From the NCBI RefSeq assembly GCF_041248615.1, contig NZ_CP158426.1: a stretch of DNA of 64,000 nucleotides, one strand, 5' to 3'. This stretch comes from Escherichia coli (lineage in GTDB: Bacteria; Pseudomonadota; Gammaproteobacteria; Enterobacterales; Enterobacteriaceae). Shown here piece after piece: positions 31,611 to 55,103 of this stretch (position 1 is the first letter of the stretch; every line of letters starts with the position of its first letter). The notes below the pieces were generated by a model. That model made no database searches. It saw only the letters and a program-made list of their open reading frames with translations, and had not been told where the DNA came from. The translations under genes were made by a program, and so were the position numbers.

Positions 31611-31826
31611 TTACTCTCTTCTCGCAACCTTACGCCTGTCTTCTTTAATCTTGAAATAAAGGTTTGTCAGATACGTCAGCAGGCCAAAAACCAGACTACC
31701 CAGCACACCGATTGCAGCCCACTGTGACGGAGTTACTTTATCGAGTAACTGCAATGCCCAGAAACCAGCATTACCAGCCGATGTGCCATAGGCGATACCT
31801 GTTGTTAACTTATCCATTGATTTCAT
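31611..31826 (-). CDS. S: pinholin (phage 21 S-like class II holin, dual-start MKSM)
   Basis: 71 aa, [28 protein letters not shown]... close to S21 including the Met1/Met4 dual start. Confidence 0.85.
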
Positions 31827-32300: not shown

Positions 32301-32578
32301 ATTGTGGTGCTTTTTGTGGGAGTCATCCACTTACGCACTTTGTTTTGCTATGCTAGCAGTTAGCTTCTGCTGTAAAACTATTCATGCAGCAAACCTGCAC
32401 TTCACCACAATGGTTAGCATACTTTTCCTGATTAAGTTATTGCCAAATATGCTGGCCATTGTTTCATGTATTGGATCTCCTTACTATTTATTAAAGAGAT
32501 CCAATATTCACCACTCTGTCTGTATCTCCACTCAGGCATCAGCCTTCTTCGTTATCGTATACAGACAAACTATTAATT

Positions 32579-32794
32579 TTAATCAGTAATTATGACATTT
32601 GCTGCTGCAGGACCTTTAGCACCACTCTCTACAGAGAAGGTAACCTTTTGACCTTCAAATAAGGTTCGATAATTATCATTCTGAATCGCAGAAAAATGCA
32701 CAAACACATCTTTACTACCATCAACAGGAGAAATAAAGCCAAAACCTTTATCAGCGTTAAACCATTTTACTAAACCAGTCATTTTATTTGACAT
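32579..32794 (-). CDS. cold shock protein (CspB-like)
   Basis: [21 protein letters not shown]... canonical CspA-family sequence. Confidence 0.8.
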
Positions 32795-33093
32795 TCTACA
32801 TTCCTTAACTTGAGCCTTTCGGCATAAATGGCTTGTATAACAGAAACGACTTCGTACTTAATTGGAGAGACTCAAAGAAGGAATAAGTGAATAACACCTG
32901 AAATGAGAACTGCTTTAGTAAACTACTTCGTATATCGTCTGTTCTTCAAACCGACGCAATCATTAACGCATAGTTGAACATATGAAGCAATGTTTATTTT
33001 AGACATCCAGCCATCTTCAACCCCATCAAAAAACTATAGCTTTCTTCAGGAACGTGTGTATAGTGCGCCAAGTTATCAGTATTAAGGAATTTT

Positions 33094-33306
33094 TTGTCCC
33101 GTAAAATGACAGGAATTCTCAAAACCTTTGACGGCAAAAGCGGCAAAGGTCTTATAACCCCATCCGATGGTCGTATCGATGTCCAGCTTCATGTTTCAGC
33201 GCTCAATCTCCGCGATGCAGAAGAAATTACCACCGGATTACGCGTGGAATTTTGCCGGATAAATGGTCTGCGTGGACCATCAGCTGCCAATGTTTACCTT
33301 TCATGA
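33094..33306 (+). CDS. cold shock protein paralog (CspF/CspH-like)
   Basis: [26 protein letters not shown]... CspF/H-like. Confidence 0.75.
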
Positions 33307-33598
33307 GCTATATTAAAGCTTTAACTTCAAGCCCCATCGAATCAAACATGGAGAGTTTTCATGAATAAACCCGTCTGTCTTGATGACTGGTTGATTGGCT
33401 TTAAAAGCTTATGCTGTACTTTGACCTTAATAGCTCTGCTAATAATGTAATAAGCAGACTCATTGTATCTATGGACATTGTACTGGAAGAAAACATTTTA
33501 AACATCAGGCAAAAAACAAAGTCACCCGATAAATAATAAGTAAACTAACATGAATCCCGTAATGAGATTCAACATCTCTATTACCCTATTTAAAGCAC

Positions 33599-33622
33599 AA
33601 AAACCCGCTCATCAGCGGGTTT
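33599..33622 (-). terminator. tR-prime-like terminator downstream of Q
   Basis: CCCGCT-CATC-AGCGGG hairpin with flanking T run (on the minus strand). Confidence 0.5.
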
Positions 33623-33668
33623 TCTACTTTTTCTTAACTTCGGGTATACAAAGCCCATCGTTGAAAAA

Positions 33669-33697
33669 ATTTTATCCATATTTTTTGAAAAATGCAA
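33669..33697 (-). promoter_or_regulatory. putative Q-dependent late promoter (pR-prime-like)
   Basis: Minus-strand TTGCAT, 17-bp spacer, TAAAAT, immediately downstream of Q and upstream of the hairpin. Confidence 0.45.
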
Positions 33698-33728
33698 GCA
33701 TCACGTCGCCATCTTCGGCGAAAATCAC

Positions 33729-34481
33729 TTATCTCGTCACCTTTCTCAATTGTGCTTCAGCGTAAGATTCCTCCTGCCAGCACTTTGTAACCAGTTTATC
33801 AATGACATTTGCATATCCTTTATACCACTGATAATCACTCAGGTCCGGTACCAGCTTCTGGACATGATGCCGCGCCAGTGTGGTTGGTAAACGACTAAAC
33901 CGTTTTCCATTGCAACGCCCACAAATCTTATAAACAGGTGTGCCATGAAGCCGGGTCCTTTTTTCATCCAGGACAATACCTTTACCCTTACACCCTCTGC
34001 ACGCTGTGCTGACTTCTCCCTTACCATGGCAATGCTGACATAGTTCCTTCACCCACTCTTCTTTGATAACAGATTCCCCGCTTCTGGAGTGTTTCACCAC
34101 TTCGCGCAATACATTATGAAATCCAGTACCAGCACAATGCTCGCAACGAGCCTTACTTGCCGCAGACCTGGAATAATCAGCAAAGGCAAAATTCACAAGG
34201 TAAGGAATAATCTGTAGCCGGGTTTCTTCACTCAATTTATTCAATGTCGGGTTATCCAGTGCCATCGCGTAATTGAGCAGACCTTCAATCGCAAACTGAG
34301 GATCCTGAACACCAACTTTTGCCAGGAATAAGGCAAACCCAAGCGGTGCTTTCGACTGCACCATCCCCTGCGCAGCCATCACATCCGTAATCGTTAAACC
34401 ACCAGAGCCTGTCGCCGGTGCGTCATCACTCAATTTTGGAGATTTTGGGGAGTAATATTTTGGTAAGGCTTCAAGGTTCAT
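33729..34481 (-). CDS. late-gene antitermination protein Q
   Basis: 250 aa with Cys-rich zinc-binding region (CEHCAGTG ... CQHCHGKG ... CRGCKGKG), Q-family; position upstream of lysis genes. Confidence 0.7.
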   Translation of the reverse strand: MNLEALPKYYSPKSPKLSDDAPATGSGGLTITDVMAAQGMVQSKAPLGFALFLAKVGVQDPQFAIEGLLNYAMALDNPTLNKLSEETRLQIIPYLVNFAFADYSRSAASKARCEHCAGTGFHNVLREVVKHSRSGESVIKEEWVKELCQHCHGKGEVSTACRGCKGKGIVLDEKRTRLHGTPVYKICGRCNGKRFSRLPTTLARHHVQKLVPDLSDYQWYKGYANVIDKLVTKCWQEESYAEAQLRKVTR

Positions 34482-54404: not shown

Positions 54405-54662
<258 letters not shown>

Positions 54663-54780: not shown

Positions 54781-54867
54781 GCGAAGGTGGCGGAATTGGT
54801 AGACGCGCTAGCTTCAGGTGTTAGTGTCCTTACGGACGTGGGGGTTCAAGTCCCCCCCCTCGCACCA
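54781..54867 (+). tRNA. leuQ: tRNA-Leu (CAG)
   Basis: 87-nt sequence GCGAAGGTGGCGGAATTGGTAGACGCGCTAGCTTCAGGTG...CTCGCACCA with anticodon loop CTTCAGGT and long variable arm. Confidence 0.9.
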
Positions 54868-54895
54868 AAAACCACGTTGATATTGCTCGCACTGG

Positions 54896-54982
54896 GCGAA
54901 GGTGGCGGAATTGGTAGACGCGCTAGCTTCAGGTGTTAGTGTCCTTACGGACGTGGGGGTTCAAGTCCCCCCCCTCGCACCA
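54896..54982 (+). tRNA. leuP: tRNA-Leu (CAG)
   Basis: Identical second copy. Confidence 0.9.
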
Positions 54983-55016
54983 AACGAGGCGATATCAAAA
55001 AAAGTAAGATGACTGT

Positions 55017-55103
55017 GCGAAGGTGGCGGAATTGGTAGACGCGCTAGCTTCAGGTGTTAGTGTCCTTACGGACGTGGGGGTTCAAGTCCCCCCCCTCGCA
55101 CCA
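55017..55103 (+). tRNA. leuV: tRNA-Leu (CAG)
   Basis: Identical third copy. Confidence 0.9.

Follow-up and report, generated by a model that had tools for sequence, protein, structure and literature searches.

Next to the Q antiterminator gene of a lambdoid, Qin/SfV-like prophage of Escherichia coli lies a promoter, pause element and terminator that very probably form its late-gene regulatory cassette, working by the standard lambda-type mechanism. The cassette lies in a 64,000-nucleotide stretch of contig NZ_CP158426.1 (assembly GCF_041248615.1), which was analysed as a whole and is referred to here as the window. A putative pR'/tR' pair had been proposed downstream of Q from the letters of the DNA, and this proposal is borne out by the family to which Q belongs, the alignment to lambda pR', the conservation of the cassette and a 3' end mapped in K-12, all of which agree.

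In the mechanism that we propose, sigma70 polymerase would initiate constitutively past the end of Q, taking 33662 (minus strand) as +1, and sigma region 2 would recognise AACGAT (+1 to +6) together with the GGG that follows, producing a promoter-proximal pause around +16/+17. Without Q, polymerase would resume transcription and terminate at the hairpin and U-tract, and the released RNA, about 68 nt long, would have its 3' end near 33595. With Q, which would bind a site in the spacer between the -35 and -10 hexamers and load onto the paused polymerase, transcription would become terminator-resistant and would read across an insert carrying cspF, cspB and ynfU into the holin, lysozyme, Rz and terminase/head/tail operon. 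The assignment marks the start and stop points of late transcription in this prophage, which is its value for annotation; it leaves knowledge of Q antitermination unchanged. The lambda and P22 homologues are fully characterised, and the terminator is already annotated in two phage records.

The Q gene and the promoter-pause element

The gene at 33729..34481 (minus strand) encodes a Q antiterminator of 250 aa, of the YdfT/QuuQ type within the lambda-Q family, as identified from its open reading frame and from Pfam, PDB and BLASTP comparisons. The protein matches Pfam PF03589 (E = 1.5e-53, 179 bits), its best solved-structure relative in a PDB search is lambda Q (7ubm, E = 1.1e-37), and BLASTP aligns it with lambda Q over the full length at 35% identity with a single gap of 48 aa. 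RefSeq names the gene ydfT, and its product is the Q of the K-12 prophage Qin. Comparison with lambda Q places the 48-aa insertion in the zinc-ribbon arm (33978-34121, minus strand; Q residues about 121-168), where it adds two CxxCxGxG motifs to give four in all, an arrangement like that of the DnaJ zinc domain; the Pfam model DnaJ_CXXCXGXG scores 31.2 bits on Q, slightly under its cut-off. These motifs suggest a second zinc centre in the DNA-contacting arm, and given an arm enlarged in this way the details of loading may differ from those in lambda. Towards the 3' end of Q, on the antisense strand, positions 33808-33835 (plus strand) hold a promoter-like sequence, TTTGCA-16-GATAAT, with 9 of 12 matches; antisense promoters are present within lambda Q (paQ) and P22 gene 23 (P a23), and the equivalence of our site to them is doubtful.

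The Q reading frame ends with TAA at 33731-33729, and the promoter, pause element and terminator follow on the same, minus strand. After 31 intervening nucleotides, the -35 hexamer TTGCAT (33692..33697) begins 32 nt past the stop codon; its sequence matches TTGACA at three of six positions, where lambda has TTGACT. A 17-nt spacer, TTTTCAAAAAATATGGA (33675..33691; also given as TTTTCAAAAAATATGG), is the putative Q binding element, as judged by conservation and by comparison with lambda, and leads to the -10 hexamer TAAAAT (33669..33674; 5/6 against the consensus). TTTTTC then sits between the -10 and AACGATGGG (33662-33654), that is, AACGAT followed by GGG. Identity with lambda and conservation mark this block as the predicted +1 (A at 33662) and sigma70-dependent pause element, from which the pause itself is predicted to fall around +16/+17 (33647-33646).

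The original prediction had described TTGCAT-17-TAAAAT as a near-consensus promoter. The sequence is present as described; 'near-consensus' overstates a -35 with three matches and a -10 with five. Indeed, a generic promoter scan with a cut-off of 4/6 for each hexamer missed the site, as the -35 reaches just 3/6. The window contains 12 hexamer pairs of this grade, where a first-order Markov simulation predicts about 23, and because they occur at or below chance frequency we rejected the hexamers alone as evidence. Likewise, AACGATGGG by itself is not rarer than chance, with one copy in the window and at least one copy in 43 of 100 shuffles. The composite is unique in the window, being the sole promoter-like site that has, 5-8 nt on, a -10-like hexamer with GGG behind it. 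The strongest single piece of evidence is this AACGATGGG pause element, which had earlier been overlooked.

Its weight comes from lambda. A gap-free alignment starting at the -35 gives TTGACT-17-TAAATT-TGACTC-AACGATGGG for lambda and TTGCAT-17-TAAAAT-TTTTTC-AACGATGGG for the window. The two have in common the 17-nt spacer, the 6 nt from the -10 to +1 and an identical TCAACGATGGG, with AACGATGGG the same in both sequence and position (+1 to +9). By hand count, identity from the -35 to +9 is about 73%, and within the spacer 10 of 17 positions are shared and 7 differ. In both phages the cassette comes directly after a homologous Q and places an intrinsic terminator ahead of the lysis genes, although the terminator lies at about +40 to +68 in the window and at about +194 in lambda. 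The proposed likeness to the lambda Q-antitermination module therefore holds on the identical AACGATGGG at +1 to +9, on the same hexamer spacing and on the Q gene upstream. In lambda, a -35-like TTGACT located 1 bp upstream of AACGAT is reportedly used for sigma region 4, in work ascribed to Nickels et al. 2002. The window has TTTTTT where lambda has this TTGACT-like element. The AACGAT at +1 to +6 of lambda and its GGG, a 'discriminator-like' sequence, are bound by sigma70, with a pause at +16 (PMC4005639); this sigma70-dependent pause is required for Q loading (PMC4005639; PMC9388147), and the Q-modified polymerase then passes terminators over thousands of base pairs (PMC9388147).

P22 provides a second point of comparison. 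Downstream of gene 23, its record annotates P late, qut, the 5' nucleotide and t late, in a promoter and pause layout like that of the window, and the P22 terminator lies 30-58 nt from the annotated 5' nucleotide, which shows that a short leader is normal in the lambda-Q family. P22 differs from the window in its antiterminator, because gp23 is of the 207-aa lambda type, unlike the 250-aa Q here; in its promoter, which is near-identical to that of lambda and not to that of the window; and in its pause element, which is followed by GGA, not GGG.

Between the Q stop codon and the -35, positions 33706-33721 (minus strand) hold an inverted repeat, TCGCC-gaagat-GGCGA. Lambda and P22 have TTGCCA-cgga-TGGCAA in its place, with one compensatory pair different. 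Unrelated inverted repeats occupy the equivalent position in Salmonella SF6, Erwinia 49, Providencia PSTCR3 and a Klebsiella phage (fold z from -2.3 to -5.5), and none is present there in Cronobacter ENT39118. Among 46 close variants of the window sequence, single changes break the stem in about half.

Conservation and spread of the module

To follow the cassette through its relatives, we collected 80 viral-contig loci with a 97-100% identical Q and added SfV, Ayreon and K-12, which together gave 46 distinct intergenic sequences. The most conserved stretches among these are the -35, the spacer and the pause element. Mean column entropy is 0.00 for GGG, which is invariant, and 0.05 for AACGAT, in which 4 of 6 columns are invariant and the major base has a mean frequency of 0.99; taken together, at about 0.03, they form the most conserved block. 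Values then rise through the -35 (0.10; 5/6 columns invariant), the spacer (0.19; 11/17 columns invariant), the -10 (0.32), the discriminator (0.57) and the stretch from +16 to +39 (0.65), and reach 1.4-1.5 beyond the terminator. The -10 varies among TAAAAT, TAAGAT, TAGGAT, TATAAT and TAATGT, always keeping T1, A2 and T6. A spacer more conserved than both the -10 and the discriminator is what would be expected if it carries the Q binding element, and in lambda the Q site is placed partly between the -35 and the -10 (PMC6266700, citing Yarnell and Roberts 1992).

The terminator is retained with more freedom in its sequence. A hairpin and U-tract lie at about +38 to +63 in 33 of 34 distinct promoter/terminator variants, with folding energies of -9 to -24 kcal/mol, and the stems comprise several sequences, including one C-G to A-U compensatory change. 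A covariation test of the stem over 13 distinct variants gave a result no better than shuffles (86% of cells paired, one compensatory change), and we therefore claim no covariation support. The remaining variant of the 34 has a decayed terminator, AACCCGCCATCAAGTAGGTATTTT (-5.1 kcal/mol), found in a few relatives (IMG/VR loci L014 and L073); if the prophages that carry it are active, their late transcription would be partly independent of Q.

Homology to SfV, the Stx2c and Stx2k phages, mEp460 and Ayreon, whose late regions are different, ends at window position 33596, directly after the terminator, which is the expected edge of a Q-pR'-tR' specificity module. The promoter, pause element and terminator thus travel with Q as one exchangeable module, which about 40% of complete E. 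coli genomes carry. In the records of SfV and Ayreon, the homologous site is marked as a terminator; the promoter is annotated in no record or paper that we found, and a literature search on ydfT/quuQ returned nothing about it.

The module is common to SfV, the Stx2c- and Stx2k-converting phages, mEp460, Ayreon and K-12 Qin (ydfT/quuQ). Relative to the window, these have 93-98% identity in the Q protein and 83-94% DNA identity over the 3' end of Q and the intergenic cassette, and they differ from it in their -10 and terminator sequence variants. Their downstream cargo also differs, with cold-shock genes in the window and Qin and tRNAs plus stx2 in the Stx phages. More distant members of the family, with Q proteins 38-42% identical, share the plan of the cassette. 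Salmonella SF6 has TTTACA-17-TAATCT, 7 nt and then AACGATGGG, with a long leader like that of lambda, and a Klebsiella phage has TTGCAA-17-TAGATT, 7 nt and then AACGCTGGG, with a terminator unrelated in sequence; in both, a -10-like element with its GGG thus begins 7 nt past the -10 hexamer. In an Erwinia phage, a hairpin and U-tract of its own come after a promoter-like site, and the unrelated terminator hairpins of the Klebsiella and Erwinia phages lie about 45-70 nt downstream.

The module precedes stx2 in Stx2c and Stx2k phages, in which it has about 84% DNA identity to the window; in Stx2c phages, Q is 98% identical. In phage phiSTEC1575-Stx2k (2820-7159), three tRNA genes and stx2AB follow it at a distance of about 2.2 kb, and there the pR' type of the window is the late promoter of the toxin. 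The type of Q and pR' is reported as a likely influence on toxin output in such phages (PMC6266700).

The terminator and a predicted short transcript

The intrinsic terminator tR' (33595..33623, minus strand) was recognised as an inverted repeat, by folding and by a terminator scan. Its stem (33623-33614 / 33609-33600) is a G+C-rich inverted repeat of 10 bp, with arms AAAACCCGCT and AGCGGGTTTT that are 100% complementary around a 4-nt loop, and the U-tract spans 33603-33599, the stem being followed by TTTTT(G)TGCTTT. Because the hairpin begins 46 nt and ends 69 nt past the -10 hexamer, its earlier placement within about 60 nt of the promoter was sound. For the predicted transcript of 67 nt, the folding energy is -21.5 kcal/mol (z = -4.2), and 0 of 200 shuffles were as stable. 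From the predicted +1 and the 3' end mapped at the orthologous position, the short constitutive pR' transcript would be about 68 nt long (33595..33662, minus strand), the counterpart of lambda 6S RNA and of the P22 P-late leader.

That 3' end comes from K-12. Term-seq data list 1642356(-) as an 'orphan' 3' end in each of the three sheets of Supplementary file 1, which are divided by growth condition; two of the three rows give read counts of 103,591 and 55,368 (Adams et al. 2021, eLife). When mapped on K-12, the end is the C of GGGUUUUGUGC / GCGGGUUUUGUGC, 4 nt beyond the U-tract of the orthologous hairpin, and its equivalent in the window is C 33595 (minus strand), where we predict that the RNA ends. 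The pR'/tR' cassette offers a ready explanation for this orphan end, which could in principle also come from readthrough of an upstream transcript rather than from pR'. The predicted +1 corresponds to K-12 position 1642422(-) of NC_000913.3. Supplements of the Cappable-seq and SMRT-Cappable-seq papers contain no matching coordinates for a transcription start of the K-12 ortholog, which they neither establish nor exclude. A second K-12 minus-strand end at 1642188(-), about window position 33427 and about 170 nt downstream of tR', adjoins a hairpin, TCTGCTTATTA...TAGCAGA, antisense to ynfS; it suggests either some readthrough of tR' or RNA processing.

The terminator scan placed the tR' hairpin on the plus strand, because the stem is symmetric and T-runs flank it on both sides. 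On that strand the hairpin faces the convergent genes cspF (33094-33306) and ynfS (33361-33450), and it could stop transcription from both directions. Only a few variants, the window and K-12 among them, have the A-rich 5' flank that would enable this. Term-seq lists no plus-strand 3' end at the orthologous K-12 hairpin, in a setting where cspF-ynfS may be poorly expressed.

Could the short RNA be more than a by-product? Short pR' transcripts of Stx phages are Hfq-binding small RNAs, a feature proposed to be common, and IsrK of Salmonella Gifsy-1 has been described as the product of an antitermination-controlled phage promoter (PMC7547250). Like the RNA predicted for the window, StxS and IsrK are short, constitutively terminated RNAs from such promoters (PMC7547250); unlike it, StxS is associated with another type of Q and pR' and arises by processing of a longer precursor. 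We searched the predicted RNA against Rfam and obtained no match at gathering score. Sub-threshold matches to the Phe and Trp leaders, isrJ, isrK and STnc370 were rejected, because all rest on the generic terminator hairpin.

These likenesses raise the prospect that the short RNA is the main product, either as an Hfq-dependent trans-acting small RNA of the StxS/IsrK kind or as an antisense regulator of cspF-ynfS, with antitermination secondary; this would be compatible with the late-gene cassette, and we judge it quite unlikely. The RNA would have a stable terminator hairpin and a U-tail, its K-12 3' end is abundant, and the isrK match covers nearly its whole predicted length (33598-33664, minus strand). 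That match, however, scores 15.8 bits where the gathering threshold is 50 and owes its score largely to the generic terminator, and conservation within the cassette is lowest across the RNA body (+16 to +39), which argues against a seed shared across the family; our search found no Hfq, processing or target data for the short pR' RNA. A broader pair of possibilities is likewise unlikely: that the RNA of about 68 nt is functional in lysogens and in K-12 Qin, in trans (StxS/IsrK-like) or as an antisense or collision partner of cspF-ynfS, and, separately, that the enlarged Q subfamily with two zinc centres in its arm loads by a variant mechanism, without the -35-like sigma region 4 site of lambda.

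Late genes beyond the insert

If the late-gene cassette works as proposed, the first late gene proper is that of a class II holin, essQ (31611..31826, minus strand), identified by Pfam Phage_holin_2_1 and by the RefSeq annotation of E. coli O55:H7 CB9615, whose locus shows 100% identity with the window across a comparison of 501 bases. Next on the same strand come ydfR, a lysozyme gene (Pfam Phage_lysozyme) and an Rz-like gene, and beyond these the CB9615 annotation continues with terminase, portal, protease, capsid, tail, J, lom and tail-fibre genes as far as prfC. Roughly 25 kb of this is the operon for terminase, head and tail. With this full set of lysis, head and tail genes the prophage looks complete, unlike K-12 Qin, and the late genes driven by pR' would extend over roughly 30 kb.

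An insert of 1.8 kb separates tR' from the holin and carries cspF and ynfS on the opposite strand, together with cspB and ynfU. Cold-shock genes thus sit inside the late operon at two places, cspF and cspB between tR' and the holin and cspI and ynfQ past Rz. A cspA thermoregulator (Rfam RF01766, 160 bits) lies at 32516-32955 (minus strand), in the 5' UTR of cspB.

A late transcript would have to cross this insert, with genes on both strands and a further terminator-like site at 32297-32278, and the nearest well-studied copy of the module sits in the cryptic prophage Qin. Both points would fit a fossil cassette, descended from a working pR'/tR' that no longer controls the late genes, for example because Q is never expressed or cannot load. 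We regard such decay as very unlikely: Q is intact, and viral contigs hold relatives with 100% protein identity; TAAAAT is nearer to consensus than the -10 of most relatives in active phages; the CB9615 prophage is annotated with the full lysis, terminase, portal, capsid and tail set; and terminators fail to stop Q-modified polymerase over thousands of base pairs (PMC9388147). Still less plausible, to the point of being highly improbable, is that the hairpin chiefly terminates other units (the convergent cspF-ynfS on the plus strand, or an early operon ending with Q) and that the hexamers are a chance match. In favour of this reading, the stem is symmetric with a plus-strand T-run and was called on that strand, cspF and ynfS lie upstream of it there, and similar hexamer pairs are as common as chance would allow. 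Against it, the position of the hairpin is kept in phages without cspF downstream (SfV, Stx2k and Ayreon), the plus-strand tail is not T-rich in most of these cspF-less phages, K-12 Term-seq has a 3' end at the hairpin on the minus strand only, and the conserved AACGATGGG, -35 and spacer would be left unexplained. Because of the cspF-less phages and the minus-strand 3' end, a role as terminator of cspF-ynfS only was rejected.

Two other features lie on the early side of the prophage region. About 20 kb from the cassette, positions 54448-54641 (minus strand) contain two matches to naRNA4 (REP-type), and positions 54781-55100 (plus strand) contain three tandem 84-nt tRNA matches with identical scores.
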